Source: Yuukianura sp. NJ FZ-2021 | Taxonomy: Eukaryota | Length of the DNA stretch: 64,000 nucleotides | Assembly: GCA_046563655.1 (NCBI GenBank) | Contig: CM102288.1 | Span: 5,890,001 to 5,954,000 of the forward strand | Direction of reading: 5' to 3' | Shown: one piece after another, positions 3,561 through 63,901 of the stretch | How the letters are laid out: every line of letters starts with the position of its first letter | Numbering within the stretch: position 1 is the first letter of the stretch | Made by a program: the position numbers and the translations under genes | Notes under the pieces: model-generated | What the model saw: the letters and a program-made list of their open reading frames with translations, nothing else | What the model was told of the DNA's origin: nothing | Databases searched by the model: none

Positions 3561-3563
3561 TAA

Positions 3564-25842: not shown

Positions 25843-26277
25843 TCATACGTTCGACAAAACAAGTGAAGAGCTACGGATTGTTTGCTGTAACTCATATACT
25901 GAACAACCTTGATTACACTGATTTATTTATGGGTGACATCAACGTTGCTTAAATAGGAGTTTTGTTTATTATTTTTTAGTTTATCCCATATCCCATAATC
26001 CCTGTGCGCTATACTTACGCGCTTCCATTACCTTAGCAATCCCAATTGAAAAATATAGATTTCTATAGCAAAAGCGTAAGAAAAAAAACAATATTTTTGG
26101 TGAGACAACAAAATTCGTCTAAAAGGTGTTTTTTTTTCTAGTTTTTTTTTTAATTCGGAGTTATGACGTAACCTCTTACGGCATTTGTACAAATGGCCGC
26201 TATAGCAACGTTGGGGTGACATAAAAAACTATTCTGGGTAAAATTTCCCCAGGGTGATTCGTAGAGGCATGGTAACG

Positions 26278-28650: not shown

Positions 28651-31600
28651 ATGAACTTTTTCCTTTTTGCAGGACTTGCACTGCTGGTGGTACTTGTAGG
28701 GTCATGTGAAGGTAGGGGGCCCTTGATCAAGAGTTTTCCACCGGGACGACTTCCTCCTGCTGGATCGAAATCTGGAGCCCCTTCGGAGCAACGGACAGCT
28801 GAATTCCGGATACCCGATGCCTTGGTACCCACACACTACAAAATCCAACTGCTTCCTGTTTTCTATGACCCCGAAGTGACCGATCCGGTGGGGGAACCAT
28901 GGAATGTTTACGGTAACGTCGAAATTACTCTGGAGTGTCGACAAACTACGAGTGAAATTCATCTGCACGCTTGGGACTTGGCTAACGTCATGAACAATCC
29001 AGACATCCAGGTATGACATAACTTGAATTAGCTGGAAAGTTACAATTACTTTGCAATACTTTGAATTACTTTGACCTTTTAACGGTTAGGTTTTTCCTGT
29101 TGGAGACAACCCGTCACTGATTCCAATTACTTCAACAACTAATCACACACAGGATCCAGAAGTAATTGTGTTCTCACTTGAATCTGAACTTACTCCAGGC
29201 AACCAGTATGTCATCTCCATACCCAACTACATCGGGAACATTCCAGACCACAAGGGCTTCGGAGGAAGGATGAACGGAATGTACCGAACCACCTACGAAG
29301 ATGAGTCGGACCCTCCGGTCGTCAAGTAAGCCCATTGCTCAGGGAGTACCTAGGGTGAGGTTTTAAGGGAGATTCGCATGGCTTGAGAATCAAAGAATGT
29401 CAATACAGAAAAAAAGTATTGAACCCAGTGAGACTCGAACGCAGCTCGCTTCAATCCGGGGAGAGGTCTAACGTCTAACCATTGAGCTATCAGGTTCCAA
29501 ACAGGCTTGGCAAAGGGATTATTGTCAAACGCTACATGAGTTACATTTTTTTTACATTGACTTTTTTGTAAAATTTTTTTCATATGTCGGCTGATGACTA
29601 TGATTTACTTTTGCCTTAGGACAATCGCTACGACACAATTCAGTAAAACCCGTGGTTTCAGAAAACTCGTTCCGTCGTTTGACGATCCAAAGTTCAAGGC
29701 GAAATTTACGATCAGCATTGCACGGCACGACACCTACCGCTCGCTGTCCTGTATGAACAGAGTTAATGGCGAACAAGACGATCCAGTGTAAGGTTTTAAA
29801 ACTTTTGATAACAAAAAAAAAGTTTCATCAGAAACATATAAGCTTAGTTTTGATCTTAAACGAGTTCTGATCAATTTTGATCACAACTTTGAAATGGTGT
29901 TTCAGAGGTGATGATTTTCCGAATTGGTATTGGGACCATTACGCCACTACTCCAGTGATGCCGCCTACTGTCACAGCAATGGTCGTGTACAAGAATGGAG
30001 ATCTGACAGGTCATCCTGCTACGTCCGCAGGACTCGATACTACGGTCAACGTCTGGGGTCCTCCGCATATCATCGCTGGTCAACAAGCCATGTTTTCAGC
30101 GCAAGCCGTCGCAGACTTACTGGCATACTACAACACACACTTCGGTATCGACTACGAGCTGCCCAAGATGGACTCGCTAGGAATCAACCACTTTTACTCC
30201 GGAGCCATGGAGAACTGGGTAAGACTCAATTTGAACCAACTCATTTCGCGGAATTGGAATTTTGAAAAATTCAGCTGAAATTCAACTTTTGGATATATTT
30301 GAAAAATATATTAATCAATTTCGAAATAATTTCAATCTCATTCGGACTTTTTTCTATCCTTTTTAGGGACTCAACATTTACCGAGCCGCATACATGTTCC
30401 ATCACCCTGAGCACGGGACGGAAGCTCTGAAGTTTTCCACTGGACGAGTTGTGGCACACGAGCTTGCCCATCAATGGTGGGGCAATTTGGTGACCCACCA
30501 ATGGTGGAACGACTGGTGGCTCACGGAGGGTTTCGGAACATACTTCAGTTACGAAGCTTTTAACGCAGTATACTCACACTATGCCGCCAAAGTACGCGGT
30601 ATCACTGACGAGCATCAAGATGCATTGGCCTTTGACATCACTCCAGCATCCAAGCCTGTCCACGGAAAAGCTGAAGATACGCTGGAAATCAATCCATCTG
30701 CAATCGACTACAGCAAAGGATCCTCTCTAGTGCGCATGATGAGTGCATTCCTTACTGAACCCGTGTTTACTAAAGGTATCAAGTGGTACCTTGAAAAGCG
30801 GCGGTACCAAGCGGTATCTCAGGATGAACTGTTCGCTGATCTTCAAGAATCTCTGGAAGTTGAGGAACAACCGTCGAATGGAAAGTCAATTGCAGAAATC
30901 ATGGAGGCCTGGACGAAAAAGACGGCGTACCCGGTTGTCCGAGTTTCTAAATCCGAATCGACACCGAATCTGGTCTACTTTTCACAGGAAAGATTCAAGG
31001 TTTTTGAGGAACAAGCTCCGGAAGATGCCGGAGAATCTTGGTACATTCCGATCATGATCCTTTCACAAGCGGTACCGGTTTCGGATAAGCGTGCTCCGGA
31101 TCTCTGGCTCAACCAGGGTATCTCTCTGACCACACACAGCGTCAAGAACAGCGATGACTGGATTCTGGTCAACCCGGAAGCAAGAGGTAACTCACAATTT
31201 TATAACTGGGGGTATCCGCTTTGAGATACCTCCAAGGAAAACGGTGGTACCCCCACAAAAAGGTACCTCTACAGAAAACTGGCACATCAATCGAAAATGT
31301 GGTACCCCAAAGGAAAATGTGGTACCCCCAAAGGAAAATGTGTTACTCCCAAAGGAGAATGTGGTACCTCCAAGGAAAATTGTAATACCTCTACATAAAG
31401 TGGTACCCCTGCAGAAAACGTAGCACATCCGCAAAAAACTGTGGTACCTTTAACAGACAAATGCGGTACCTCCACAGAAAAGCTTGGTACCTCTATAGAA
31501 AACTGATACCTCGTCACGAATACCTTTTGAACAAATTATTTTGCAAAAATGATCACAGTTTCTAATTTTTTCCCTTATTTGCTAGGTTACTATCGGGTAT

Positions 31601-33274
31601 TGTACGATGACCATTATGCGAGACTACTTCAGTTCCAATTGACATATGCATTGGAGACTATTCCAGAAGCCAGTCGAAGTCAACTGATTGACGACTACTT
31701 GACGTTTGCTTTTGAGCAGTACGTCACATTTGACGAAGCAGACAAAATGGTAGGATTCATCAGCAGAGACAACATGCTGGGCAGCTGGATTTCATACTTG
31801 AGACATTTCCGCAAAGCCTACGACCTTCTACGGGAGCCAGCCACCGGAGACTACGACAGATTCAAGGTTTTCAAACTTTTTTGAAAAACTAAAAGACTAA
31901 ACAACTAAAAGCTTAAAAAAACTCTTTTTCAAGATTTTGATTCAATATTTTTTGAAACTTTTCGCAGGCTTACGTTCTGCCCAAAGTGGAAGGCGGCTTA
32001 GCCGTGATCGGATTGGCTGGAGACAACCCTGGAGACTCCATTCAGACGCACATTCTACGCAGTCAGCTCATGGACTGGGCATGTGCAATGGATGATGCGG
32101 AGTGTACGGCTTACGCAGACGAACTTTTTGAGAGCTGGATGAACTCTGGAACTCCGTAATTTCTTTCAATTTTTTATATTTTTATAAATATTTTTTAGTT
32201 GTGTATTTAGTTTCTCACGCTGAAGTTGTTGAGTTAAATCACAACAGAATTAATTCTGTCGTGCTCCACAGGATTCCTGTTGAACTCCGTTCTGTCGTTT
32301 ACTGTCGCGGTGCTGCTACTGATGGTACCCTTCAAGGGGACACGCAACACTGGGATTTCCTTAGATCGAAGTACGTGGAAACAGGAGATGTGCAACTACG
32401 CAGTGCTTTGAGTTGCAGCTTAAACACTTTTAGCCTTGACAGGTAAATCTTGTAATTCCAAATGAATTGTTTTGAAATTGATAGTTTTTTTTTAAAAGAA
32501 AATATTTAAAAAAAAAAATTTTTTAAGCTTGCTCTTAGAAGCTGAGGGGTCAACTGACCCGGAAGAAGGGTGGGCATTGCTGGAAGTGGTTGCTATTAGT
32601 GATCAGAGTCACCGAGCGCAAGTCATCGAATCCCTCACAGCCAATATGCCAACTTATAACGAAAAGTAAGAAAAATTTTGAAATTTGTCTGATGTCAGGC
32701 CTAGAACTTTGTGAAAGTGAAACTTTTCAAGTCAATTGTAACGATGTTTCTGAAATTTTGTTTTTAGTCTTGGGATAGAGGGATTGGTTGACGTGTTTGA
32801 CGCCATGTCGCCATTGGTCCATGATACGGCAGAGATCGATAGTGTGAGTAACCTAAACCCACCGTAGTTAATTGTGTTACTAATAATCTATACAATTAAC
32901 TGATTCCATTTAAATTTACTTATTTATGACGCCTTGTGTTTTAATTTTAATTACTTTTTAGTAACTAGTAGCGAAAGCTACTTTGTGATTGACCTTGTCT
33001 GTCTGTCTGTATATCTGTCTGTGCGGTTTCCTTCCGGGACAAATGCCAACTTTTTTCAACTTTTACTGCAATGATAAGTTTTCTCTTTAAGATTGAAGTA
33101 ATTGTGGAGACATGGATAGATGATAGCATTTTTACGGAAGATGTGCTGGGCAAGTTGAACAGTGCCATCAGCACAATGCGATCCAACACGGGGTGGCTTC
33201 CGAAGTTCCGCCATCGTTTCCTCGTCAACTTCCCCGAAGTACAAGCAGCAAATTCAGAGTTTTGCGAAGTTTAG
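28651..33274 (+). CDS. Aminopeptidase N-like M1 zinc metallopeptidase, multi-exon
   Basis: [25 protein letters not shown] (HExxH-x18-E), YSKGSS and GYYRVLYD. N-terminal signal peptide. The start could be 28636 or 28651. Confidence 0.92.
29377..29497 (-). mobile_element. tRNA-derived SINE-like element (intronic)
   Basis: On the minus strand: A box (TAGCTCAATGG), B-box-like GTTCGAGTC, pairing ends gaacc/ggttc and a T-run. Shares its tail with four other copies. Confidence 0.6.
31208..31512. repeat. Degenerate ~21-bp minisatellite (gtggtaccyc..gaaaa) in an aminopeptidase intron
   Basis: Repeated ggtacc cores with roughly 20-22-bp spacing. Confidence 0.75.
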
Positions 33275-33908
33275 GCTTTGTATACATAGTGTTTGTCAAA
33301 ATTTAAAAAAAATATCAAATATGTCATTGGACGATTCAGAATTCCTTGGAATTTTTTATAAAAACTCATAAATTTTCCATTTTTCACACGGAATTTTTAT
33401 ATTCTGGTTTACTCCGCATAAACACTGAAATTCTGAGAACATCGATAAATTTCATGCATGTTTTTGAGTTTTATCTTTTGTCAACTCACCGCAACTTCGC
33501 ATGATCATTTTAATGTTCGTCAACTTGTTTCCTAAACTAGATGTTGTGACAGGTCATAAATCGTGTCAATTAATTTCCCTTTGAGATCAACTTTTAATCC
33601 AGATCAAATTGGATATTGGTTTTGCACTGGAAAATTTTTGATGATCCAAATTTTGTGGTAATTTATAACAGGGTTCTCAGAATGAACAAAGAAGCGTCTC
33701 ATGATCAATTTGTTTGCAGAGATGCCACCTTGAATAACAACGGTGTTTTAAAGAGTCTTTTGCTAAAAAAAATGTATAAATTCATTAGTCTTTCTTCAGT
33801 CTTTTATAGAATAGGCATTTTGAGATAATTTTTGTATAAAGTTACTAGTCGTTTTGTCATTTTCTAATTCAGAATTGAATTTAAAGTTGCAGAATACTAG
33901 TTTTAGCA

Positions 33909-35038
33909 ATGGATTTTATAAGCAAACTCGTTTTACTCATTGCCCTGACGGGAGTAACTGTCAATGGACAAGGCAAGTCAATTGGAATTTCCTATTTTGG
34001 AATTTCAAAATTTTGAATTTTGAAAAATGTAATTATTGTTAGGATTTTTGTTTTATTAACTGCATAGTTCCAAAGAGAGAAGAGTTTGAGCAAGGAGTGA
34101 CGTCAAACGGGTTTCCGAAGCCGACTGCAGCACAGTACCGTGGTTACGTCAAATCGCTGCGTCAAGGCGGCATTTCCAGAAAGATTGAGGCTGCGATGTA
34201 CCTTGCGCAGACGCTGCACGAATCGGCTGGTCTGCGCACAAAGCGGGAGTTTGGATGTTCTGGCAAAGGGGGCTGCGAGTCCAAGTACCCCGCTGACAAG
34301 GAGTGGTTGGCAGAGTGCAAGGGATCGAATCGACCCAAGGGCATTGGTCAGTTCAATTTAGGCCGAAATTAGGCCGAATTGGTTCGAAAAGCTACAAGAA
34401 GGAGCGATGACTTCACCAAATCATAGCTTGCAATCATTTTCATTACAACACATTAAAAAAAACATTTTCAGTTGATCCACTTCTTTCGAATCTTTCCCAT
34501 TTGAGGCAATTGGTTTCGAACCTTTTCCATTTGAACCAATTTTGTTTAATTTCCAGCCGATAATGTCTGGAACTAATTTTTGAAGCCTTTATTTTTGAAC
34601 CAATTCGGCATTGAACATTTTTATTTGAAGCTATTGGTTTCGAGCCAATTTCTTTGTTGAACCAATTACATGTTTTTTGTGTTAGGTTACTATGGACGAG
34701 GGTACATTCAGTTGACATGGTGCTCCAACTACGTTCCAGCGTCACAGGCTCTGCTGGGAGACAAGGAGAAACTGAAGCATGATCCTGACAGAGTGGCCAT
34801 TTCTGAGGATGTGGCCTGGGGCGTGTCAGGTTGGTTCTGGAAGGAGCGTGTCCACCCTGCTCTGGGCAACAGTGACCAATTTGGACTCACGACCAAGGCT
34901 ATCAATGGACAAACCCAAGAGTGTCAAGGGAACGGACAGAATGCGGACAAGTCCAAGCAACGCTTTCGCTACTACGTTAACGTCTTCAAAGCTTACAAGT
35001 TACAAGGAACACCGAACGAGGCTGGATGTAAATACTAA
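33909..35038 (+). CDS. Secreted glycoside hydrolase family 19 chitinase (3 exons, first intron GC-AG)
   Basis: Exons 33909-33972 (signal peptide), 34068-34346 and 34686-35038. GH19 motifs AAMYLAQTLHESAGL, YYGRGYIQLTWCSNY, WFW and FGLTTKAING. Confidence 0.92.
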
Positions 35039-35305
35039 GACACAATTACATGTAATTACATAATTACATTATTACCTGCGACTGTAACATATGCACTTAC
35101 ATCAATAACTATAAAATTTAAATTCAAAGCGTATTCGTTTTGAAATAAAATATTTAATTGCTCATAAATCTAATTAGCTTAAGTTTACTTTACTCAGCTT
35201 AATAATTCATAGTAACCTCCATATTTTCAAAAACTCAAAACTATAAATATCTTGCTAATTAGCAATATTTTGACCTAATTGACTCAAATCCTCTGCGTTT
35301 TTGCA

Positions 35306-36132
35306 CTAACCATCCCTTTGATGTTCGTCCAGTGCAATGCACATGGACACTATGAGAGCAATGTCCACTCCCGGAGCGATTTCTATCAAGTACTCGTCTG
35401 CTCCTAAGAAAAACGATTTGCTCGTTGTCGGTCTGTAGATTTTGGCGATCGGAGTGCCATCTTGCTTTGGTTCTCCAAGAAAAACCATCGCTTTTTTGTC
35501 TCTCCAATTGCCCTTGAGCACAACAAAGTGATGCCCACCATTCACCGGATTCTTCACATACGCTGATAGCTTGGCTTTCATAAAATTTCGTTCCGTTTTG
35601 AACGTAAACAACTCCCGCTCTGAGTTCCCGCCAGCAAAGACTTTGTATTTGTCTGACATTGCCATGAGCGGCTTCTTCAAGTTGAGCACCGGTTGACCAT
35701 CGATGTCGAGCAGCGTCTTTTTGTCTTTCAAACTAAAAGTTTTGCCGGCACAGCGGAAGTAGAGTGTTCCACTCGCGTCAGCGATTTTGAAATCGTCGCC
35801 GGAGAAAGAGAAAACTTTTTCTTTAAGCTTGAGTTGGACGGAATGCGGGAGACAAAACCGAGGTTCGATTGCACAAACTGGATTCGTTTGAGCAACGATC
35901 TGCTCAACAGAAATAAAAAAACGTGAAATATTTTAGAAGAAATTCTAAACGAGCCTGGATTGTTTCAAAATTTAATTCCAGAACAGATTAGTAAACACAA
36001 GTTGGAAAATGCAACTAAAAGTGGGGAAAATTTGGAAAGGCAAATTGAATTTGAAAAAGAAACTTTTTAAATTTTCCTTCACGAAAATTCTCTCACCTGA
36101 ACGTTTTCGTATTTGGAGTTGTCACCACCCAT
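35306..36132 (-). CDS. LURP-one-related / Tubby C-2 domain protein (2 exons)
   Basis: Exons 36132-36097 and 35899-35306. Motifs LKEKVFSFSGDDFKIAD, KKTLLDIDGQPV, LKGNWRDK and YLIEIAPGVDIALIVSMCIALDE. Confidence 0.88.
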
Positions 36133-36807: not shown

Positions 36808-39002
36808 CTAACGTGGCTTGAAAATATTAAATTGATGTTTAAACTTAAACAACTTAAACCTCAAATTCCATCTGTAAATGATCTCTGCGGTGATAAATTT
36901 GTTACTAACCTTATCCCAAACAACTTCAATAAAAAATACACCGATTGACAGACTTTTAAGTAGAAAGCAAACGATGATGGAGTTTAGCATAGGCGTTCTG
37001 AGGCCCCAAAAGTCCGACGACTGCTCTCTGTCTTTTCTGCCGATTCGTATGGCCTGTCTCTTATCGCCGTCGATATAATTCTTATCCCAGAATCCATCGA
37101 TCCCTGCTGCATAGATACTCAGCATTAAGCGATGATAGGGAGTGCTTAAATAAGAATCATAAGTGTATGCAGTGACCCATCTTTCATCAAAACTTTCTTT
37201 CACCATGTGACAACCGAGATTTTCAAATTTCGGATTTCCCTTGATTTTCAAAAGTTTTGCCGCGGCGAACTTTCTCTCAATCAGTTCCGTGCCGTAGTCG
37301 GCCATGGTCCCTATCGTATTTGAACCGTTTTTGTAAATGTCGACGAAATATTCGTCAGAATTGTTCAAATTTAAATGTTTCTGGAACGCCGGTTCGTAAT
37401 TTGAAACAAACAAGTCCCGCTCTTCTGAAATTATTTGAAATCCATTTTGAAAAAGAGCGGAAACGCTCTCCAGTGAAATTTCTTGAAAAGGGAGAGTGAT
37501 TTCACTGGAAAAATAGGAGAGGTAAGCTTGTTGTAGCACGACAATGGCCAACAGAGACACAAAACGGACCAATGTCACGTTCCTGCTGTGTCCAGGTTGG
37601 CCAAGAAATATCCACAAAGTGTCCATGACATGCATGAACGGAACGTTGCGGATGAAGAGAAAGAGGGAGGACACGCTTAGAAAAAAGAGCGTCCAAGTGG
37701 CGACATCGAAGGGACAGAAAATGGTGTGGACCAGGTTCGAATCCTGGAAAGTTCTTTTTGTTTTGCAGTAAATGAAGTTCATGGAGTTTACAAACATGAG
37801 GGTCATGCTCAATTTGAAACTTGCATCAACTCTCGCCACGTGAGGACTAACTTGCGGCGGGCCACAGTGGTAACAGGCTCGGAATAGAAGGTCATCTCCA
37901 GTATACCGAAATGTTACGTTAAGTTTGATGGTGCAAATTACAAGTAGAATCTCGGCACTGGTTTCGCCCCAAATTCTGAGTCCTTGTGGAGTTTCCGACG
38001 TTTGTGAAATAGACAAGAGATGTGGAATGTATGGCGAAACACCGCCGTAACTCCTACGCGAAGACATTTTGGAAAATTTTGATTCCAGGTCAGCAATGTC
38101 CGTCGGCGGGTCACCAGAGAAAGAATTCCTGTTGGTTCTACGCCAAAAATACCTCCAAGTTGTAGAAAAGCTGGAAGAATAAAAAATGAGAAAGCTTTTA
38201 CGTTACATAACTTACATAGCCTTAGTACATAAAACATAATGTACATTATCAAAACGTAATTAAATTCGTTTACATAAATGACCCACTGCACAAACTAATT
38301 ATCGCCTTCATTTGTTACGTTCGGGAGTCACATGGCTTAACAGACAAAGAACGAGAGTGTAGAAAAAATAAGAGACCGAGTGGGACTTGAACCCACACCT
38401 CCTCTATCGCGGAAGCACTCTAACCGCATTGAGCTATCATGCCACAATTCTGCAACTTCTCGAAGGATGGAACAATTAATGCATAAATTTCACCATTTCC
38501 CTTACATTAGCTACTTGTTACATAACTTATGTAATGGTGTATATGAATTACATTACCTCGTATGTCCAGCTACTGATTCTTCCAAGTACATGACCACAGA
38601 CATTCTTGGATACTGGAATTCATGTCGGTAGTTGGCAAATATTCTCCAAAATTTAGTAGAAATTTCATTATTAAAGGTGACGAAATACAGAGTGCCTTCA
38701 AGGTCATCCAACATGGAGGCTCCCGAGAGGTGTTCAAAGAGCGCACTTGGCGCCCGATAACAGTGAAACAAGCGGATGTTTGATGCCGTTTTGTGGCGCC
38801 ATTTTGCTGATTCTTCGAAACTAATTTGATTGTATTCGTTGTGCCACTGAAGTAATTGCGAATTCAGAGTATTTCGACACCAAGGGGCGCCTATTCCTAA
38901 ACCTTGGTAGATTTCTATCCTACTGGCGGGGAATACTGGAAATAGAGTTGAGTACTGTTGAATCGTAACAGTTAAAAAAATTATTAATTGGGACACCTTC
39001 AT
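36808..39002 (-). CDS. Divergent ionotropic receptor-like membrane protein, copy 1 (2 exons)
   Basis: Exons 39002-38557 and 38170-36808. Signal peptide. M1-like IFCPFDVATW, M3-like VLQQAYLSYFSSEITLP, S2-end AAGIDGFW and a final TM ending GVFFIE. Confidence 0.75.
38329..38443 (-). mobile_element. tRNA-derived SINE-like element (intronic)
   Basis: A box TAGCTCAATG and B box GGTTCAAGTCC on the minus strand. Homologous to 55390-55505. Confidence 0.7.
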
Positions 39003-39908: not shown

Positions 39909-42344
39909 CTAACGTGGTTTAAAAAAACTACATTGATGTTTAAACATAAATAACTTAAACCTTACACTCAACCGGTAAAACAGCTCACTACTAAATTGGC
40001 TGTAAATTTTATCCCATGTAAATTCAACAAAAAATACACCAATTGATAGGATTTGAAGTACAAAACAAACGATGATGGAGTTGAGCATAGGTGTTCTCAG
40101 CCCCCAAAAATCTGATGTTGTATTTCGTTCTTTTGTGCCGATTCGGATGGCCTGTCTCTGGTTTCCATCAATGTAATTCTTGTCCCAGAATCTATCTATT
40201 CCCGCTGCGTACAGATTCAGCATTAAGCGATGATATGGAGCACTTAAATAAGAATCATCAGTGTATGCAGTGATCCATTTTTCATCAAAACTTTCTCTCA
40301 CCATGCTACATGCGAGATTTTGAAATTTCGGATTTCCCTTGATTTTCAAAAGATGTGCTGATCCGAACTTGCCCATGATCAGTTCCGTCCCGTAGTCGGC
40401 CATAGCTGCTGCGCACATAGGGGTTGAACCAATTTTTGACATGTCAACAAAATATTGGTCGGTATTATTCAAATTCAAATGTTTTTCGAAACCAAGTTCG
40501 TTTTTTGAGACAAATACGGACGGGTCGTTTGAAATTATTTTAAAACCGTTTTGAAAAAGATCGGAAACGCTCTCGAGGGAAGTTTCTTGAAAAGGCATAG
40601 TGATTTCACTGGAGAAATATGACAGATAAGCTTGTTGTAGCACGACAGTGGCCAACAGGGACACAAAACGGACCAATGTCACCTTGCTCTTGTGTCCAGG
40701 TTGGCCAAGAAAGATCCACAGAGTGTCCATGACATGCATGTACGGAATATTGCGTACGACCAGAAAAAGAGACATCACGCTAAGAAAAAACAGCGTCCAA
40801 GTGGTTATGTCGAAGGGGCAGAAAATGGTGTGGAACAGGTTCGGTTCCTTGACAGTTCTTTTTGTTTTGCAGTAAATGAAGTTCATGGAGTTTACAAACA
40901 TGAGGGTAATGCTCAATTTTGAATTTTTTGTATCTCCCGCCACGTGACGGTTGATCCACGGTGGACCGTGGTTGAGCCACGGTGGACCGTGGTTCAGCCA
41001 TGGTGGGTCACAGTGGTAACAAACTCGTAGAAGTTCACTTGAAAAAAACGTAAATGTTATGTTGAGTTTGGCGGCGGAAATTATTAGTAAAATGTGGGCA
41101 CTTGATTGGCCCTCAAATGTGAGTCCATTTGGAGCTTCCGAAGTTTCTGATAAGTAAAGGAAATCACCCGTTTGATGAGAAAGTCGGCCGTACCTCGTAA
41201 TACGCGACATCGTTTTGGAAAATTTTGATTCCAGGTCAGCAATGTCCGTGGGCGGGGCACCTGATACGGGATCGATGTTGGTTCTAAGCCAAACATACGT
41301 CCAACTTCTAACAAAGCTGGAAGAAAAAGAAATCAGAAAACATAACTGAATTTAACTGATCCACAGCATACCCGAAGCGTAACTTTACCCGAAGGCGACT
41401 TTACATAACTCACTTCACTTACATCCTTGCATTTTACGAGCAGATTAGTTAACGTACGTGCTCATATAAGTTTATGGAAGTCAACACGCTTACATACAAG
41501 GTTTGTTGATTCTTTAGCAGGTTGGGTACTACTTCATGTTTTCCGAATTTGCCAATAATTTTCCATTTTCATTTCTCTCGTAGTCATAGCAATAAAGTAT
41601 TTTTTTTTTATTTTTACATACGAGTTGGTACCAATTTTTTGGATTGGTACATAGTAAATTGGTAGTATAAAAAAAACTTATAATTTTTTTTTTCGTTTTT
41701 TGTGAACAAGCGACATACCCAACCTGTTAGCGGAAAACAAAACAACAACTTTACGTTGTCAAGGAAACTTGCCAACACAGGTTGTCTAATGCATAGATTC
41801 CACCATTCTCCCACATTAGTTCCATGTTACATAACTTATATGGGCATAGTATATTACATAACTTTTGGAATTTTTACATAAATTACCTCGGAGGTCCAGA
41901 TGCTGACTGATCCCAGTATATAACTACGGACATTCTTGGGTGTTGGAATTGGTGTTGGTACTCATCCTCTTCAAATCTTTTCCAAAATTCAATAGAATTT
42001 TGTTTATTGAAGGTCACAAACCATAAGCTACCTTCAAGGTCATCCAAAATCGAGGCTTCCGATAGCTGTTTCAGGAGGAGACTAATGGTCTGATAACAGT
42101 GAAACCACCGAATGTTTGTTCTTGTTTTGTGGCGCCATTTTCCTGATTCTTTGAAACTAATTTGATTGTGTTCGTTATGCCATTGAAGTAACTGCAAATT
42201 GAAAGTATTTTCACACCAGGGGGTGCCTATTCCTAAATCTTGGTGGATTTGTATTCTACTGGCAGGAAATACTGGAAATAGAGTTGAATAATATCGCCGA
42301 ACCAAAAGTGCTAAAAATATTATTAGCTGTTGTGATACTCTCAT
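39909..42344 (-). CDS. Divergent ionotropic receptor-like protein, copy 2
   Basis: ORFs 41883-42344 and 39909-41210, with the same two-exon structure and TM motifs as copy 1. Confidence 0.75.
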
Positions 42345-43134: not shown

Positions 43135-45065
43135 TCATTTGTAAATCAACTGAACTGTACTAAATTTGTCATCAACTTTATCCCATCCAAATTCAACAAA
43201 AAATACACCGATTGATAGGATTTTAAGTAGAAAACAAACGATGATGGAGTTGAGCATAGGTGTTCTGAGGCCCCAAAAATCCGATACCCCCGTTCTGTCT
43301 TTTCTGCCGATTCGTATGGCCTCTCTGGCATTTCCATCAATGTAATTCTTATCCCAGAATGTATCGATTCCTGCTGCATACAGATTTAGCATTAAACGGT
43401 GATAGGGAGCGCTTAAATAAGAGGCATCAGTGTATGCAACGGTCCAGTGTTCCTCAAAACTCTCCTTCACCATGTGACAAGCGAGATTTTCAAATTTCGG
43501 ATTTCCCTTGATCTTCAAGAGTTCTGTCGATCCAAACTTTTTCTCGATCAGTTCCGTGCCGTAGTCGGCCATGGTCCCTACGCGGATTGGCCTTGAATCT
43601 GAATGTATTTTTGAGACGTCAACAAAATATTTGGCGGTATTGTTCAAATTCAAATGTTTGTTGAAAGCCGGTTCGTAGTTTGAGACAAACTCATTTGGGA
43701 CATCCGAAATTATTTTAAAACCGTTTTGAAAAAGATCGGAAACGCTCTCCAGGGAAATTTCTTGAAAAGGCATAGTGATTTCACTGGAGAAATATGACAG
43801 GTAAGCTTGTTGTAGCACGACAGCGGTCACCAGGGAAACAAAACGGAGTAGGGTCACCTTGCTCCTGTGTCCAGGTTGGCCAAGAAAAATCCACAGAGTG
43901 TCTAGGACGTACATGTACGGAACATTACGCACGACCAGAATAAGGGACATAACGCTTAGAAAAAAGAGCGTCCAAGTGGTTATGTCGAAGGGGCAGAAAA
44001 TGGTGTGGAACAGGTTCGGTTCCTTGACGGTTCTTTTTGTTTTGCAGTAAATAAAGTTCATGGAGTTTACAAACATGAGGGTAATGCTCAATTTTGAATT
44101 TTTAGTATGTTCTGCAACGTGACGTTTGACCCACGGTGGACCGCGGTTGATCCACGGTGGGTCACAGTGGTAACAGACTTGAAGTAGAAACGCTCTTTCC
44201 GCCCCCTCAAATGTTATGTTGAGTTTGCGAGCGGAAATTTGAAGTAAAGCGTAAGAGGTTCCTTTATCCCAACGTGTGAATCCAGTTGAAGCTTCCGAAG
44301 TTTCTGTTACATAAGTGATATTTGAATATTTTGAAGAAGCCCAGCCATAACTAATACGTGTCAGCATTTTGGAAAATTTTGATTCCAGGTCAGCAATGTC
44401 CGACGGCGGGTCACCTGGCACTGGATTGCTGTTTGTTCTAAGCCAAACATAGTTCCATCGTGTACAAAAGCTGGAAAGAAAACATAATTTACTTTAATTT
44501 AAATAAATTCAAGTAAAACGTATAAAGGTATAATACTATTATACCTTTATACATACACACTATTATACTATAATAGTGTAGTAGGGTAATAGCTTACATA
44601 AAAATTACATTGTTACCTCGGAGACCCAGCCGCTGATTGTTCCCAGTACATAACCACGGACATTCTTGGATACTGGAATCCATTTTGGTAGTCCGCAAAT
44701 TTCTGCCAAAATTCACTAGAATTTTCCGCATTGAAAGTTACAAACCACAGACTACTTTGTAGATCATCCAAAATTGAAGCCTCCGAAATGTGTTGAAGCA
44801 GCGGACTAATCGTTTGATAACAGTGAAACCACCGGATGTTCGTCCTTGTTTTGTGGCGCCATTTCTTTGGTTCTTTGAAACTAATTTGATTGTGTTCGTT
44901 ATGCCAATGGAGTAACTGGGAATTCAGGGTATCTTGACACCAGGGGGAGCCTATCCCTAAACCTTGGTGGATTTGGATTCTACTGGCAGGAAATACTGGA
45001 AAAAGAGTTGCAGAATATTGCTGAACCAAAAGTGTTAAAAATATTATTAACTGTGATACTCTCAT
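43135..45065 (-). CDS. Divergent ionotropic receptor-like protein, copy 3 (C-tail shortened by a 1-nt deletion)
   Basis: ORFs 44613-45164 (ATG 45065) and 43135-44421. Confidence 0.72.
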
Positions 45066-48777: not shown

Positions 48778-50856
48778 CTAATTTCGTCTCAAAATATTAT
48801 TTTGATGTTTAAACATAAATAACTTAAAGCTAATAGTCCACTTGTAAATCAACTGAACTCTGCTAAATTTGTTATAAACTTTATCCCATGTAAATTCAAC
48901 AAAAAATACACCAATTGATAGGATTTTAAGTACAAAACAAACGATGATTGAGTTGAGCATTGGTGTTCTCAGGCCCCAAAAATCCGAAATCGTTTTTCCG
49001 TTTTTTCTGCCGATTCGTATGGACTTTCTCTTGTATCCATCAATGAAATTCTTATCCCAGAATCGATCGATTCCTCCTGCATACAGATTTAGCATTAAGC
49101 GGTGATAGGGATCGCTGAAATAAGAGTTTTCAGTGGACGCAGTGATCCAATCTTCCTCAAAACTTTCTTTCACCATGCTACAAACGAGATTTTCGAATTC
49201 CGGATTTCCCTTGATCTGCAAAAGATGTGCCGATCCGAACTTTCCCGCGATCAGTTCCGTCCCGTAGTCGGCCATTGCCCCTGCGCACATAAGCGTTGAA
49301 CCAACTTTTGAAACGTCAACAAAATATTTCGCTGAATTATTCAAATCCAAATGTTTTTTGAAACCCGGTTCGTATGTTGAGACAAACTCGTGTGGGGCGT
49401 TTGAAATTATTTTAAAACCGTTTTGAAAAAGATCGGAAACGCTCTCGAGGGAAATTTCTTGAAAAGGCGTAGTAATTTCACAAGAGAAATATGACAAATA
49501 AGCTTGTTGTAGCACGACAGTGGCCAACAGGGACACAAAACGGAGCAATGTCACTTTGCTCTTGTGTCCAGGTTGACCAAGAAAGATCCATAAAGTGTCT
49601 ATGACATGCATGCACGGAATGTTGCGTACGACCAGAAAGAAGGACGACACGCTTAGAAAAAAGAGCGTCCAAGTGGCGATGTCGAAGGGGCAGAAAATTG
49701 TGTGGAACAGGTTCGGTTCCTTGACGGTTCTTATTGTTTTGCAGTAAATGAAGTTCATGGAATTTACAAACATGAGGGTCATGCGAAATTTTAAATTTTG
49801 AGAAGCTCCGTCCACGTAAGGGTTGACCCTGAGAGGGCCACAATGGTAACAGACTCGAAGTAGAACTTCAGTTTGAGTGGGCTCAAATGTTACGTTTAGT
49901 TTGAGTGCAGAAATCACAAGTAGAATGTAGGCACTGGATTCGCTCCAAACTGTAAGTCCTTGTGGCGCTTCTGAGGTTCTTGAAATGAAAAGGAGACTTG
50001 GCGTGTCTGGAATCGCAAAGCCGTACAAAATACGCGACATTGTTTTGGGAAATTTTGATTCCAGGTCAGCAATGTCCGTGGGTGGGTCACCAGACACTGG
50101 ATTGCTGTTGGTTCTACGCCAAACATATTTCCATGTACAAAAGCTGGAACAAAAAAAAACATGACGATTTTACGTTACATAACTTACATAACGTGCATTA
50201 CGTATACGAACACATCAGTGAAAATTATATAAACCATTTACTACATTTCGTAATTCAACAACAGCAAACAAATGCAAAAATACAAAAACTCCACTTCTTT
50301 TTTTACATAATTTTCACGATTGTGTTGCATTACTTCCATGCCTATTATATTATGTAAATTGCATAATACATAATTTGTATAATGGTTTGCATAAATTACA
50401 CTACCTCGAAGAACCAGCTACCGATTGTTCCCAGTACATAACAACAGACGTTCTTGGATACTGGAATTCGTTTAGGAATACCTCCGCAAAATTTTTCCAA
50501 AATTGAACAGAATTTTGTTCGTTGAAGGTCACAAACCACAAACTTCCTTCAAGGTCATCCAGAATTGAAGCCTCCGCAAGTTGTTGAAGGAGCGGACTAT
50601 TCGTCCGATAACAGTGAAACCATCGGATGTTCGTCCTTGTTTTGTGGCGCCATCTTCTTGATTCTTTGAAACTAATTTGATTGTGTTCATTATGCCAATG
50701 GAGTAACTGCAAATTCAGAGTATTTTGACACCAGGGGGTGCCTATTCCTAAACCTTGGTGGATTTGGATTCTACTGGCAGGAAATACTGGAAATAGAGTT
50801 GCAGAATATTGCTGAACCAAAAGTGCTAAACATATTATTAACTGTGATACACTCAT
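48778..50856 (-). CDS. Divergent ionotropic receptor-like protein, copy 4
   Basis: ORFs 50401-51009 (ATG 50856) and 48778-50097. Confidence 0.75.
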
Positions 50857-51399: not shown

Positions 51400-54019
51400 C
51401 TATGCCCGAGAAACAAACTTGACTACGCATGGTCTTGGAAGGATTGTGAGTGTTGCTGCTCCAGGTTCGATTGAAGGTTCTTGACCTTCCTTGACCTCAA
51501 GTGAGAACGTCGACAAGAGAGAAATCATAAACCGAAATAAAACGTCCATGGCCATTGTTTCTCCTGGACAAATTCGTTTTCCTGTAGCGTAAAAAAAACA
51601 AAAAATTAGTTATGTAATATGTAATTTTAACTCCTTGACTCACCGAATCCAAAGCAGCTTGCTCGTTCCTTCTTTTCTTGATTCAAGGTCATTCCATCCG
51701 GGTTAAAAAATCGCTCCGGTCGGAATTGTTCTGGGTCACCCCAATAGGCAGAATCGAACATGACGGGACGCAAGTTGTAGAGAATGCAAGTGCCTTTGGG
51801 GATGACGTAGTTGTCGTACTCGATGTCGCAAGTCGCTTGTCGCGGTGGTGGAATAGTCGCAAATGGGCAATGTCGCATCACCTCCAAAATAGTAGCGATA
51901 GTGTAAGGCATTCTACATAAAAACTCAAATTTGTGAACAACCCAAGGCGGATAAACAAAGAAATACTTTTTCTTTAACAGGTTAGGCAATAACACGAGTT
52001 TTAAGTTTTTTGCAAAAAAAAATCTCAAAACTGAATTCACGTAGTTTCAATCGCGGTAGACATGGTAAACGGAATTAAAAAATTCGGAGAGATTGCAAAT
52101 TCAAAGTGGAAAAAGAATCAAAGGTAGAAAACAAAACAAAACAGGTAAACATTGTTTGACTCAAGATTTTACGAAAACAGGACTTATTGCCTAGCCTGAT
52201 AAAGGAGAACTATTTTGTTGCTATAGCAACCTTGTCAAAAACTAAAATGTGTAAATTTTGTAATTAAAAAAAACAGTACTTGTTTGTAGCAGTGAGTGGT
52301 ATGTATTTTGATCCATTATCTGAAACGTTCAAAATTTCTTTACGCGCTCATTTTTGAACTTCTGGAAACAATGTGAGGTAGATCACAGTCCAATTCATGA
52401 CGGTACTCGTAGTTTCGCTTCCTCCCAGAAACAGATCCATCAGAACAGTAATTAGCTGTTCCTCTGTTCCAAAATGTTAAAAAAAAAACTTCGAAAAAAA
52501 ATCAAATTTTTTCAAAAAGTTATTGCTGTACCGGTCATGTTCGTGTTGGGATTCCCACGATTTTTTTCAATTTCGTCTAGAAAAACTTCCACAAAGCTTT
52601 GCGCCTTCTGGTCACCTCGCGCTCGTCGTTTGACTTTAGCGTCTTCCACTAAATCCTGCCATCAAAAATCTTCTTTTACTAAAATTTGAACTTTTTCAAA
52701 TTTTTTTTAAAAATTTTACCTCCATGACCTTCCAGCACGTTTTGTTAATTTCTTCTTGGCGTCTGTATCCACTCATTTCTGGAAAAATTTTGAGAAACGG
52801 AAAAGCTGTGAGGAGATTTGTGGGGCGCAGAATTTCGAAAACTTTGTTGTTGACATCGACGTGTCGCTGGATAAATTCAGACTTGGGGTCAAACCGGTAG
52901 CCACCAACCGAACTCCACACGATATTGATCGCAGCAATACCGAACCGAATCGAGTCTAGTGCCCACACTCCGTCGGTATTTTCCGAACTGTGCCGAATGT
53001 CGTCCATCAAGAAATCCATTTCTTCCTGAATCGTTTCATCGTTTCCTTTCTTTGCAAATCCAAAATCACGCAACTTGCGTACCGTAAATCTCCTTACATC
53101 GACCCATGCGTCATCAAATGACCAAATAATTCCTAAAAGCACATTTTAAAGCAGTTCACAAATTTTAATGCAATTTATAATTCCGTTTTGGTGTTGTTTC
53201 TACTAAAAGTGAACAAATTTTAAATTAAAGAATACAAACCTAAAGAATATATTTTGAAAGTTGCTGTACCTAAATTTTGTCCGTTGGTTCTCTGCTTTGC
53301 AAAGAGAGATTTGTGCCGTTGGAGATTAAATTCCGGTCGCTTGAGCAAGTCCTTCATAATTTCAAATTTGGAAATTACAACTGAAAAGAAAATTTTGAGA
53401 TTACTAAAAATACATATGGCGACGTTTAATTTTGATTCTCATGTGAATTCGGCAGACTAGCTTGTTTTTTTTTCTACATGTAATGTAATGCAACTAAGGA
53501 GCTTTATGTAAATTCATTCATGAATAGTTTACACATGTAGGTGCGACTAATGTAATTGGGGTTATGTGTTAGTTGTTTATTGTAAAGGCTAATGTAGTTG
53601 AGGTGTTACCTGCGTAGGTGACACCCAACCCAATTGACATGACATCTCCATAGATGGCGCTTAGTCCCATTACCTGACGAAATGGATACTCCTTGTCTAT
53701 TTGCATCATCTGTGGAATACATCCAAGAATTGGCCAACGGAATGGACCTAAAACGTGTTATACGTAAAACATAGTATACATAACATCGTACACATAATAT
53801 AAAAATATGTAGGTGTAATATGTATTCAGTATATGTATATTTTACGGTAAACATACTGTATATATAGTTTAATAGTTGTTGAGGTTGAAGGTCATTTATG
53901 CCTTAGCAACAGTGAATTTTACCTGGCGGAAGCTTTCTGCGTTGTTTTATAGTTTTCCATGAGAACAAAATCAGCGTCGCGATAAACAGCACAAATAGAA
54001 TAACAAATGGTCCCACCAT
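51400..54019 (-). pseudogene. Cytochrome P450 (clan-2-like) copy 1 with an in-frame nonsense codon
   Basis: Full exon set (LPPGP, WVDVRRF, EVMR, PERF, FGFG|KRICPG), but FPEVQK is followed by TGA at 52348-52350 where paralogs have CGA. Confidence 0.85.
51943..52234. mobile_element. MITE, CAAGG...CCTTG family (copy of 6064-6353), in a CYP intron
   Basis: Near-identical to 6064-6353 and absent from the equivalent intron of the CYP paralogs. Confidence 0.75.
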
Positions 54020-57887: not shown

Positions 57888-60399
57888 TTACTTTGCCCGA
57901 GGAACAAATTTGACTACGCAAGGTCTTGGCAGAATTGTGATCGCTGCAATTCCAGGTTCGAGAGTTGGTTCTTGACCTTCCTTGACCTCAAGTGAGAACG
58001 TCAACAAGAGAGAAATCATAAACCGAAACAAAACGTCCATCGCCATTGTTTCTCCTGGACAAACCCGTTTTCCTGTAAAATAAAAAAATAACAACAAAAT
58101 TTCAATTTTATAACTTTTGTAATCTCACTTATGTAATGTAGCGTTCAGGGTCAAGTGGCTTGAGAGACAAAAAAATAATGAGCCGAGTCGGATTCGAAAC
58201 CATTTCTCTTCTATCTGGGAAGCACTTTAACCCTTGAGCTATGCGGCTCTATGTAACTGTGCAACTTGCGTAATAGATTGTTTTAGATAACTAACTCATG
58301 TAAGCCGCATTTTATGTAATCGTACATAATGTTGTAGATATGTACTATGTAATTTAAACTCTTTGACTCACCGAATCCAAAGCAGCTTGCTCGTTCCTTC
58401 TTTTTTTGATTCAAGGTTATTCCATCCTGGTTAAAAAATCGCTCCGGTCGGAATTGTTCTGGGTCACCCCAATAGGCAGCATCCACCAAGACGGGACGCA
58501 AGTTGTAGAGAATACAAGTTCCTTTGGGGATGACGTAGTTGTCGTACTCGATGTCGCAAGTCGTTTGTCGTGGTGATGGCATAGTCGCAAATGGGCAGTG
58601 ACGCATCATTTCCAGAAGAACGGCGACAGTGTACGGCATTCTACATAAAACTCAAATTCCTGAATGTTCAAAATTTGCAAATTTCGTAAAAAAAAAACTT
58701 TCTTTCTTTTTCAAATAAGTACTTGTTTGTGGCAGTGAGCGGTATGTATTTTGATCCATTTTGTGAAACGTTCAAAATTTCTTCGCGCGCTCGTTTTTGA
58801 ACTTCAGGAAACAAAGTGAGGTAGATCACAGTCCAAGCCATGGCGGTACTCGTAGTTTCGGTTCCAACCAGAAAAAGATCCATGAGAACAGCAATTAGCT
58901 GCTCCTCTGTTCAAAATTTTTTAAAAATAAAAAAAAATCATTTTTTGAAATTCCCGCTCTACCTGTCATGTTTGTGTTGGGATTCCCACGATTTTTTTCA
59001 ATTTTATCCAGAAAAACTTCGAGAAAACTTTGCGCTTCCTGGTCATTTCGCGCGAGTCTTTTGACCTTGGCATCCTGTACTAAATCCTGCAATCAACCAT
59101 GTTCAAAAAAAATTTACCTTTACGAAAATTTGCAAGTGTCAAACTTTTTTTTTTTTTCAAAATTTTACCTCCATAACCTTCCAGCATTTTTTGCTAATTT
59201 CCGTTTCACGTCTGTATCCACTCATTTCTGGAAAAATTTTGAGAAACGGGAAAGCTGTGAGTAGATTTGTGGGGCGCAGAATTTCGCAGACTTCTTTGTT
59301 GACATCGACGTGTCTCTTTATAAATTCGGAATCGGGATCAAACCGGTACCCACCAACCGAACTCCACACGATGTTGATTGTAGCAATACCGAACCGGCCC
59401 AAGTCGAGTGCCCAAACTCCGTCGGTATTTTCCGAACTGTGCCGAATGTCGTTCATCAAGAAATCCATTTCTTCCTGAATCGTTTCATCGTTTCCTTTCT
59501 TTGCAAATCCAAAATCACCCAACTTGCGTACCGTAAATCTCCGCACATCAACCCACACGTCATCATCTGTCCAAATAATTCCTAAAAGCACAGTGGTGCA
59601 AAATCAGCTCACAAATTTCACAGTGTAGTATAGTTTTAAGTGTTAACATTTAATTTGAATAAAAGTCAAAATTATTAATTCATAAATAATACGAACTTAT
59701 AAACTAAATTTTGAAAGCTGCCGTACCTAAACTTTTTCCATTGGTTCTCTTCTCCGTAAATAGTGATTTGTAACGTTGGAGGGTAAATTCTGGTCGCTTG
59801 AGTAAGTCCTTCATAATTTCAAATTTGGTAATTACAACTGAAATTTTTGAGTAAGTAATAGGAATTAAAAAAGATGAAAAACGTTGAGAATTTAACATCA
59901 TGTAACTGCTTGCATTATGTAATTGATGTAATGTATAGTTGGTTCTGTAAATACTAATGTAATTGACTTTGTACCTGCGTAGTTGACACCTAGCCCAAGT
60001 GACATGATATCTCCATAGATGGCGCTTAATCCCATTATCTGACGATACGGATATTCTTTGTCTATTTGCATCATCTGCGGAATACATCCAAGAATTGGCC
60101 AACGGAATGGACCTAGCATATTATGCACAAAACGTCTTATATACGTTTTATGAGTATTATACTTATATACTTATTCTATGTATGTATTTTATCTATATAA
60201 AGTATTATATCTACATATAGTTTGCATCTATAGCACATATATGCTACAAGGTCACCTGTCTCTTATAGCAACAGGGGACTCTTTGTTGTGTATCATTTTT
60301 ACCTGGCGGGAGTTTTCTGCGTTGTTGTATGGTTTTCCATGAGAAAAAAATCAGCGTTGCGATAAACAAAAGCAGAGGAATAACAAATGGACCCACCAT
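57888..60399 (-). CDS. Cytochrome P450 (clan-2-like) copy 3
   Basis: MVGPFVIPLL..LPPGP, DLFLVGTETT, EMMR, PERF and FGFG|KRVCPG. Confidence 0.9.
58147..58249 (-). mobile_element. tRNA-derived SINE-like element (intronic)
   Basis: 70-nt head at 58180-58249 with pairing ends gagccg/cggctc, plus A and B boxes. Confidence 0.7.
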
Positions 60400-61264: not shown

Positions 61265-61357
61265 TATGACAATGCAAAAATTATGACGAGCTGTGACGAT
61301 TTAGGTCACAGAGACGAAGACTAGAGTTTAGAAAAATAAAGCGACCAAGTGGGATTC

Positions 61358-62030
61358 TTTTTCAAAACCAGAAAAGTGTGTTTTTCACAAACATTTTAAT
61401 TGTATTACTTGTTTCATTTAACTTTGTGCATAGTAAAGGACATCTCCCTTGAAAAAAAATTCCTTTAATTGCAGAGTGTAATTAAGTTTTCATGAATTCA
61501 AGTTTTTGTGAGTAGGACAAACCAGTAATATAATTGAATTTGTATATTTAAAATTTAAAACAAGACACGAATGAAAAAAAAATGTGGAAAACTAATTTTG
61601 GAAATTTTACCGTATTACTCCCAATAGAACCCCAAACTTCAATTTGTATATTCCTACTACTTATTGAGGTTTGCTGCAATTTGATTCACAGACTTGTATC
61701 TGAATGTTTACGGTTTACAGAAAAGCTTAAGTTCATCACTACCGTGCTACTTTATTCAAAATGATGTTAAAAATTCAAATGTTAAAACTGAGATTTTTGT
61801 TATCCAGAGTTCGAATAAAGGAGAATGTTTAGGTTATGAAGTGATTACTTTGCCCGAGGAACAAATTTGACTACGCAAGGTCTTGGCAGAATTGTGATCG
61901 CTGCAATTCCAGGTTCGAGAGTTGGTTCTTGACCTTCCTTGACCTCAAGTGAGAACGTCAACAAGAGAGAAATCATAAACCGAAACAAAACGTCCATCGC
62001 CATTGTTTCTCCTGGACAAATTCGTTTTCC
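61358..62030. repeat. Recent segmental duplicate of about 57403-58075
   Basis: Near-identical intergenic sequence and CYP last exon. Confidence 0.9.
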
Positions 62031-63901
62031 TGTAGCGTAAAAAAAAAACAAAAAATTAGTTACGTAATATGTAATTTTAACTCCTTGACTCACCGAATCC
62101 AAAGCAGCTTGCTCGTTCCTTCTTTTCTTGATTCAAGTTCTTTCCATCCGGGTTAAAAAATCGCTCCGGTCGGAATTGTTCTGGGTCACCCCAATAGGCA
62201 GAATCGAACATGACGGGACGCAAGTTGTAGAGAATGCAAGTGCCTTTGGGGATGACGTAGTTGTCGTACTCGATGTCGCAAGTCGCTTGTCGTGGTGGTG
62301 GGAGAGTCGCAAAAGGGCAGTGACGCATCACTTCCAAAAGCGAAGCATGCCATTACATCGAAAAAAACGCATCGACACAATAGGCATCGACGTAAAAGAT
62401 ACCTCGATGTGTTTGCTTTATCGATGTCTTTTGTTTCGAGATCTTTTTTTCGATGCTTTTGTTTCGATGTCTTTTTTTTCGATGTATTGGCATGGACCCT
62501 CCAAAAGAACGGCGACAGTGTACGGCATTCTACATAAAGATAGTGAATGTTCAAAATTTACGAATTATGTAAAAAAAAAAGTTACAAAAAAAGAGTACTT
62601 GTTTGTATCAGTGAGCGGTATGTATTTTGATCCATTTTCAGAAACGTTCAAAATTTCTTCGCGCGCTCGTTTTTGAACTTCAGGAAACAAAGTGAGGTAG
62701 ATCACAGTCCATGCCATGACGGTACTCGTAGTTTCGGTTCCCACATTAAACAGATCCGTGAGAACAGCAATTAACTGCTCCGCTGTTCAAAATTTTCAAA
62801 AAAAAACTTTCTTTTTTTTAATATTGTTATCGCTCTACCTGTCATGTTGGTGTTGGGATTTCCACGATTTTTTTCAATTTCATCCAAAAAAACTTCCACA
62901 AAACTTTCCGCTTTCTGGTCACTTCGCGCGAGTCTTCTCACTTTCGCATCTTCTACAAAATCCTGTAATCAGAAATTTGAAGAACCCGCTTTTACTCAAA
63001 TCAGTAACTTTTCATATGTTTGTTTTTCTTTTTCAAAATTTTACCTCCATAACCTTCCAGCAAGTATTGGTAATTTCCTGTTGGCGTCTGTATCCACTTA
63101 CTTTTGGAAAAATTTTGAGAAAAGGGAAAACTCTCAGAAGGTTTGTAGGGCGTGCAATTTCGAAAACTTCTTGGTTGACGGCGACGTGTCTCTTGATAAA
63201 TTCGGAATTCGGGTCGAACCGGTACCCACCAACGGAACTCCACACGATATTGATCGCAGCAATACCGAGCCGGGTCAAGTCGAGTGCCCAAACTCCGTCG
63301 GTATTTTCTGAACTGTGCCGAATGTCGTTTATCAAGAAATCTATTTCTTCTTTAATCGTTTCATCGTTTCCTTTCTTTGCAAATCCAAAATCACCCAACT
63401 TGCGTACCGTAAATCTCCGCACATCGACCCACGTTTCATCATTTGCCAAAATAATTCCTAACAGTACAGTTCAAAATCAATTGTTAACATTTTACTGTCC
63501 AGTTTAATAATTTTTAACGTTCAGACCTGCCAAAAATATTTACTTAAAACCAACGAAATGTATAATTAAATATGATATTTACTGGAAAAGGTTAAAATAT
63601 TTACTAACCTAACATTAAGGGCATGGGAAAATAAACATGTAACAAATAGCTAGAAAATATTGATATATTTAACATTGTAGCTATGGGAACTAAATATTTT
63701 TGGCAGTTCTATAAACCTCAAGTCTAAAACAAAGTCAAAATTATTTGTCATAAAAACTAAAAACTAAATTTTGAAAGCTGCTGTATACCTAAATTTTTTC
63801 CTTTAGTTCTGAGCTCTCCAAAGAGAGTTTTGTAACGTTGGAGAGTGAATTCCGGTCGCTTGAATAAGTCCTTCATTATTTCAAATTTGGAAATCACAAC
63901 T
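61845..63901 (-). CDS. Cytochrome P450 (clan-2-like) copy 5, 5' end beyond the window; intact only if the 167-bp insertion is spliced out
   Basis: WVDVRRF, DLFNVGTETT, PERF and FGFG|KRICPG. The K-helix LLEVMR is interrupted by an insertion at 62341-62499. Confidence 0.75.
62341..62499. mobile_element. MITE inserted in a CYP exon (introner-like)
   Basis: 8-bp TSD tccaaaag (62333-62340 and 62500-62507). 22-bp inverted repeat catgccattacatcgaaaaaaa / tttttttcgatgtattggcatg. Internal catcga/tcgatg repeats. Confidence 0.88.
63523..63710. mobile_element. Small MITE-like element in a CYP intron
   Basis: Inverted repeat ctgccaaaaatattta (63527-63542 / 63691-63706). The paralogous intron is shorter. 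Confidence 0.55.

Follow-up and report, generated by a model that had tools for sequence, protein, structure and literature searches.

A foldback MITE in the K-helix exon of a tandem CYP2-clan cytochrome P450 gene: probable disruption with a fortuitous GT..AG pair

Within the 64,000-nucleotide stretch of DNA analysed in this study (the window), a cytochrome P450 gene is interrupted in one of its exons by a short inserted element, and the deletion of 167 nt that begin with GT and end with AG restores the protein exactly. The question raised by this locus is whether the spliceosome makes use of that GT..AG pair, in which case an intron would have been born from a transposon, or whether a transposon has disrupted the gene and the pair is fortuitous.

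The inserted element and its host gene

The host gene (G5; 61845-63899, minus strand, with its first exon or exons lying beyond the window end) encodes a P450 with exons, all on the minus strand, at 63899-63789, 63457-63045, 62962-62839 and 62782-62599. These are followed by the K-helix exon, which the insertion splits into an upstream piece (62529-62498, which splicing of the 167 nt would turn into a 32-nt exon) and a downstream piece (62330-62094, running from VMRHCPF... to ...CFGFG, with a Pfam p450 match at E 2.3e-17), and by a last exon at 62029-61845 that ends with the stop codon. Three of the G5 exons are matched by Pfam PF00067, and the nearest solved relatives of the protein are CYP1A2, CYP1A1, CYP17 and CYP2C9, which identifies G5 as an animal CYP2-clan P450. 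The translation contains both EVMR (ExxR) and the heme-binding FGFGKRICPG, the signature of a P450, and its LLEVMRH, which we take to be the K-helix ExxR motif, aligns with ILETFRH of human CYP1A2 and CYP1A1. A protein database search with the 87-aa exon matched no longer protein.

The inserted sequence is a non-autonomous element of the MITE/foldback type (62341-62499, minus strand; 159 nt) that lies between two copies of an 8-nt direct repeat. Both copies read TCCAAAAG on the plus strand and match each other at 8/8 positions, the coding-strand upstream copy at 62500-62507 and the coding-strand downstream copy at 62333-62340. The inverted-repeat arms are 22 nt each, located at 62473-62494 on the coding-strand 5' side and at 62346-62367 on the coding-strand 3' side, and they are 95% complementary with 21/22 positions paired. 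Each arm stops 5 nt short of the duplication, leaving the unmatched CGAAG and GACCC (plus strand) at the element termini. The interior consists of subrepeats of approximately 14-15 nt (periods of 14, 15, 28 and 29) that share a CATCGA core, the orientation of which is opposite between the two halves of the element; the element is AT-rich and without coding capacity. An earlier note on this DNA had described a 159-bp element with 22-bp inverted repeats and an 8-bp TSD, and this description was reproduced here, with the addition that the arms start 5 nt inside the element ends. An 8-nt target duplication is compatible with hAT, P and other superfamilies. A scan of the element hairpin against Rfam returned only plant miRNA hairpin look-alikes that scored far below threshold (31 bits vs. 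a gathering score of 200), which were rejected as generic hairpin matches.

Four paralogs of G5 are located in the window: P1 (51400-53403), P2 (54599-56731), P3 (57843-59843, the closest to G5) and P4 (60715-61300, a 3' fragment comprising the K-helix exon and the heme exon). The 159-nt element is missing from 4/4 of these paralogs, all of which are continuous at the insertion site, and the host word (CTTTTGGA on the coding strand) is present as a single copy at the homologous place in 4/4. The repeat in G5 is therefore a true target-site duplication and the element a genuine transposon insertion, which combines the features expected of a MITE (a short, non-coding sequence, inverted repeats and a target duplication that is single in empty sites). 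The placement of the insertion in a P450 K-helix exon, as previously proposed, was confirmed by the duplication, the paralog comparison and the P450 matches. The accompanying statement that the four paralogs have no intron at this site holds in that all of them are uninterrupted, with the qualification that P4 is a 3' fragment only and that P1 carries a premature stop.

The same signature bears on whether the insertion could be an artefact, either a mistake in the assembly or a somatic or rare variant that the assembly happened to include. Among the matches listed from the sequencing runs, no contig bridges the element junctions, as an artefact would allow; however, an exact 8-nt host duplication bordering an inverted-repeat element is a signature of real transposition and not of misassembly, and an artefact is considered extremely unlikely.

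The hypothetical GT..AG intron occupies 62331-62497 on the minus strand (167 nt; donor GT at 62497-62496 and acceptor AG at 62332-62331), and the coding-strand junctions in G5 read CTT TTG GAG G / GTCCATG...TTTTGGAAG / TG ATG CGT. With 62497-62331 removed, 428 codons are open to the stop, containing ...MPYTVAVLLEVMRHCPF... / ...AVLLEVMRHCPF... and including LLEVMRH, which bears out the earlier claim that this removal restores LLEVMRH and the ExxR motif. In the unspliced frame, the translation runs through ...AVLLEGPCQYIEKKDIETKASKKRSRNKRHR and then meets a stop inside the element, ahead of the ExxR arginine and the heme-binding cysteine. The spliced mRNA would keep two element-derived bases, giving GAG in place of GAA, both of which encode glutamate; the codon at the splice junction is GAA in the closest paralog P3 and GAG in P1, P2 and P4. 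Skipping of the 32-nt exon together with the element was also considered and was rejected upon reading the sequence because the frame shifts.

On the G5 branch, 23 synonymous and 33 non-synonymous changes were counted, compared with 21 and 28 on the branch of the sister paralog P3. Relaxed selection on the interrupted gene was considered on the basis of these counts and set aside, the comparison being uninformative. G5 appears to show no sign of extra decay, but a very recent insertion would look identical, so this similarity does not discriminate between a functional and a disrupted gene. Together with the perfect duplication and the 21/22 arm match, the apparent lack of extra decay would fit a recent insertion. 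These features suggest that a young, small non-autonomous DNA transposon (a foldback MITE) interrupts the K-helix exon of G5 within a tandem CYP2-clan array. Because the stop in the unspliced frame precedes the ExxR arginine and the heme-binding cysteine, the G5 allele would most likely be null or strongly reduced.

Splice sites, chance expectation and RNA folding

The quality of the proposed splice sites was judged with a local splice model built from 20 donors and 24 acceptors of conserved introns in G5, P1, P2 and P3, to which 3 donors and 2 acceptors from unambiguous introns of an M1 aminopeptidase gene (28.6-32.4 kb), placed with homologues, were added. The resulting 23 donors and 26 acceptors come from no more than 9 independent intron positions, of which 6 belong to the P450 array and 3 to the aminopeptidase. 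At donor position +3, the 23 local sites have A (17), G (5) or T (1) and never the C of the proposed donor; at acceptor position -3, the 26 local sites have C (16) or T (10) and never the A of the proposed acceptor. The proposed donor AGG/GTCCAT scores -0.45, compared with a median of 7.46 (minimum -2.65) for real donors in a leave-one-out analysis, and the proposed acceptor ...TTTTGGAAG/TGA scores -4.56, compared with a median of 7.75 (minimum -1.78) for real acceptors treated in the same way. Across the window, 44% of 7396 GT dinucleotides score as high as or higher than the proposed donor, and 58% of 6571 AG dinucleotides score as high as or higher than the proposed acceptor. The caveat attached to the earlier note, that the GTCCAT donor and the AAG acceptor are weak, is thus reflected in the local matrix scores, and on this matrix the GTC/AAG pair lacks the host-like splice consensus that is expected of an introner.

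Additionally, a stronger donor-like site was detected inside the element (gag/GTATCT, 62397-62402, minus strand), with a score of 6.23; use of this inner donor at 62402 would lead to an aberrant, out-of-frame product. The donor consensus of U12-type introns is RTATCCTT, and a U12-type intron was rejected by eye because GTCCAT is unlike it. The introns seen in the window are ordinary GT-AG introns.

These results bear directly on the possibility that G5 carries a nascent intron, a one-off birth from an ordinary MITE at a single locus in which the spliceosome precisely removes 62497-62331 in a useful fraction of transcripts, the hairpin brings the sites within approximately 20 nt of each other and the P450 stays functional. 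Such a birth is considered a possibility, though an unlikely one. Both of its sites score like random GT and AG dinucleotides (GTC is found at 0/23 donors and AAG at 0/26 acceptors locally), its removal would leave a 32-nt exon, and it would have to compete with the stronger donor inside the element. It is made less implausible by the real local donors, which are themselves weak beyond GTR, by the otherwise intact ORF and by the length of 167 nt, which would be workable given local intron lengths of 56-331 nt; single transposon-derived introns have also been reported in many eukaryotes, according to passages of a review (PMC11282704).

A nascent intron is also favoured by the equivalent offsets of GT and AG, which allow the protein to be restored exactly. 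Cuts at equivalent offsets always remove the length of the element plus the duplication, so the restoration of the frame is automatic and the sole coincidence is the presence of a GT and an AG at such an offset. The size of this coincidence was estimated by a simulation in which the element and an 8-nt duplication were inserted throughout the G5 coding sequence, one position at a time. A GT..AG pair yielding the identical protein arose at 46/1206 positions for sense insertions and at 15/1206 positions for antisense insertions, and shuffled elements gave such a pair in 248/9680 cases (2.6%). When the criterion was relaxed to any GT..AG pair at most 12 nt from the ends that is in frame and free of stops, a pair was present in 413/1166 and 201/1166 simulated insertions. 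The exact pair is moderately unlikely by chance (1.2-3.8%) and far from impossible for one finding picked among many.

The RNA of the 167 nt folds as one long hairpin (-59.8 kcal/mol, z -7.87), and 0/200 shuffles were as stable. In the folded structure, the stem begins at intron position 4 and pairs donor positions +4 to +10, and the 17-nt tail that follows it contains no adenosine before the AAG. This leaves as plausible branch adenosines only those at approximately -23/-24, which would probably sit within the 3' arm of the stem. The predicted hairpin enters the case for a nascent intron on both sides, as it would bring the splice sites near each other and shorten the effective intron, yet it would hide the donor positions and the probable branch region, which U1/U6 and U2 must bind. 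Overall, the modelled fold may be taken as mild evidence against efficient splicing.

Geometry, related sequences and comparison with known systems

The donor GT sits 2 nt inside the element, and the acceptor AG belongs to the host sequence that adjoins the 8-nt duplication. If the duplication is read as 10 nt (CTTTTGGAGG / CTTTTGGAAG), the GT falls at the very end of the element, and a G/A mismatch falls exactly at the AG. With the AG outside the duplication and the GT 2 nt inside the element, removal depends on luck at a single site and not on element design, and the 10-nt reading likewise makes removability a peculiarity of this site. The earlier note had drawn the donor from the element end and the acceptor from host sequence beside the TSD; the host origin of the AG stands, and the GT lies 2 nt in from that end.

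Passages of PMC11282704 and PMC9860276 describe introners as non-autonomous transposons that give one splice site, the other being provided by the target duplication or a preferred target, which makes such insertions removable by construction; introners are identified by their occurrence as families made up of many near-identical introns. Similar to the introners described there from Micromonas, Aureococcus, dinoflagellates and others, which have TIRs and TSDs of 3-9 nt, the G5 element has TIRs, a TSD, one element-derived site and an mRNA length that would be unchanged by splicing. In those systems, however, the TSD or a preferred target contributes the second site, which makes insertions spliceable in general, and many intron copies are found in unrelated genes (the same passages), whereas in G5 the AG belongs to the host, outside the TSD, and both sites are off-consensus. 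At the G5 insertion, the element and its TSD together do not supply both splice sites, and the geometry does not support the match with introners that had been proposed for this locus.

Sequences related to the element were sought in the window and in sequencing-run contigs. No second copy was found within the 64-kb window, despite its many genes and introns. For run X1, the summed contig depth is 13,828 over 62372-62488 vs. approximately 265-490 for long single flanking contigs, a value that is not a copy number; in three runs (X1, X3 and X5), the depth over the element is approximately 10-40x that of the flanks, which again does not represent a copy number. The excess depth is compatible with many similar sequences in X1, X3 and X5. 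In metagenome contigs, the pattern CATGCCAWTACATCGAAAAA was found at 3 loci, all sharing only the 20-mer, and these were rejected as family copies and regarded as chance matches.

In X1, X3 and X5, there are contigs that run from 62332 straight to 62500 without the element. These element-free contigs carry differences that are characteristic of P3 (62298 G>A, 62302 G>C and 62304 G>T), and the one from X5 also has the 236-nt longer intron of P3 at 62055/62057, matching 58101-58335. An empty-site allele of G5 was rejected because of the P3-type differences and the longer intron, and the contigs were read instead as never-inserted paralogs. Run X6 contributed a single 188-nt contig at 61789-61976 and nothing over the element.

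Considering these results, membership of the element in a transposon family that regularly creates introns upon exon insertion, as proposed in the earlier note, is very unlikely. Such a family would be in keeping with the TIR and TSD anatomy of a DNA transposon that has a GT near one end, with the element depth of approximately 10-40x the flanks in three runs (though not a copy number) and with the description by Gozashti et al. (PMC9860276) of families in which the adjoining exon contributes one or both splice sites. It is difficult to reconcile with an acceptor that comes from neither the element nor the 8-nt duplication, with a spliced mRNA that would keep two element nucleotides, with off-consensus splice sites and with the absence of a second copy from the 64-kb window. 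The prior for such a family is also low because introners were found in 175/3,325 genomes, mostly of aquatic taxa, according to passages of PMC9860276.

Ordinary gene-disrupting MITEs provide a closer comparison, as they are likewise short, non-coding and AT-rich, with inverted repeats, a TSD and hairpin potential, and the G5 element further resembles them in possible signs of many similar sequences in the genome and in its location in a redundant family alongside other pseudogenes. Unlike ordinary MITE insertions, the G5 element is accompanied by a GT..AG pair that allows exact restoration of the protein (1.2-3.8% of sites), and its arms leave a gap of 5 nt to the duplication at either end. 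Exonic DNA transposons in maize (Ds/dSpm) and C. elegans (Tc1 alleles) are partly spliced out via fortuitous or cryptic sites near their ends, leading to partial function, and this splicing is usually imprecise. The pair in G5 differs from these leaky alleles in that it would be exact at the protein level; should the G5 insertion be spliced at all, such partial removal is what would most likely be seen. The MITE-derived non-canonical introns of Fritillaria and Oikopleura and the non-conventional introns of euglenids, as presented in passages of PMC11282704, resemble the G5 element in having TIRs, TSD-like borders and ends joined by structure, but they number in the thousands and depend on altered splicing machinery or non-canonical borders, whereas the introns of this window are ordinary GT-AG.

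Combined, the poor splice scores, the competing inner donor, the geometry, the hairpin, the decaying array, the nearby transposons and the read-through stop favour a disrupting insertion. Counted against it are the 1.2-3.8% chance of an exact pair and a G5 frame that is otherwise open, with no sign of decay. The locus is probably a MITE insertion that disrupts the gene, with a fortuitous GT/AG and at most leaky splicing. The GT..AG pair would then be a coincidence of this insertion site that permits at most inefficient, leaky removal, and we infer that the 167 nt are not efficiently spliced. A gene-inactivating insertion with a fortuitous GT/AG, previously raised as a caveat, is thus the better-supported reading on account of the site scores and the geometry.

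As the evidence stands, the locus represents a routine case of a transposon knocking out one gene copy in a redundant detoxification-gene array, and the G5 copy should not be modelled with an intron at this position unless transcript support is provided. If the 167 nt were spliced, the locus would be a rare, datable animal intron gain from a transposon, seen before splice-site optimisation, and would be relevant to the question of how introners arise from ordinary MITEs. It is unlikely that G5 offers such a snapshot of intron birth in an animal, in which the hairpin loops out the MITE, the spliceosome excises the 167 nt precisely and the P450 remains functional, the result being a first-generation intron with unoptimised GTC/AAG sites, possibly one of several in the genome.

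The P450 array and its neighbourhood

P1 has an in-frame TGA at 52348-52350 (minus strand) where G5, P2 and P3 have CGA (…EVQK, stop, ARKEIL…), and judging from its sequence it looks like a pseudogene or the carrier of a nonsense allele. P4 follows immediately downstream of G5; the interval from 61300 to 61845 contains no upstream exons, and P4 is a truncated duplicate. The premature stop of P1, the fragmentary P4 and the inverted-repeat elements in introns indicate, at the sequence level, that the array is in birth-and-death turnover. Given the redundancy of the array and the decay already under way in it, loss of G5 would be tolerated.

Several other small elements were noted in the introns of the array. 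A second MITE-like element (63523-63710), with 23-nt inverted repeats that are 91% complementary, is found in intron 2 of G5, which it enlarges to 331 nt vs. approximately 140 nt in the paralogs; the summed contig depth over this element is approximately 10,000 in run X1. Intron 5 of P1 contains an element of approximately 290 nt with 47-nt inverted repeats (51942-52234), an 80% identical copy of which lies at 6063-6353, near an array of F-box genes. Additionally, a 72-nt repeat is common to the enlarged intron 7 of P3 (58171-58242), an intron of P2 (55427-55498) and an unrelated location at 38363-38437, and is probably another small mobile element.

The remainder of the window contains further tandem arrays and single genes. 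At 500-18600 on the minus strand, a tandem array comprises at least 7 long ORFs that are apparently single-exon and begin VFGQILSLLPSNDILNCRLVCRSWRD; one scanned ORF of this array has a Pfam F-box match of 22.8 bits, vs. a cut-off of 20.5, and a weak LRR match. A set of four paralogous ORFs of approximately 450-480 aa on the minus strand (36811-38202, 39912-41351, 43138-44493 and 48781-50169) shares ...DPPTDIADLESKFSK..., and a Pfam scan of one of the four returned no match. Between 21167 and 22284, long overlapping open frames on both strands arise from a short tandem repeat (…EEYPGISRADCS…), for which Pfam gave spurious fragments only. The genes located at 19500-35950 encode a calcineurin-like phosphoesterase, a subtilase (Peptidase_S8), an M1 aminopeptidase and a LURP-one-related (LOR) domain protein. 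For the M1 aminopeptidase, the protein database contained only proteins that are 30-37% identical, and the named ones among them are mostly from insects and springtails.
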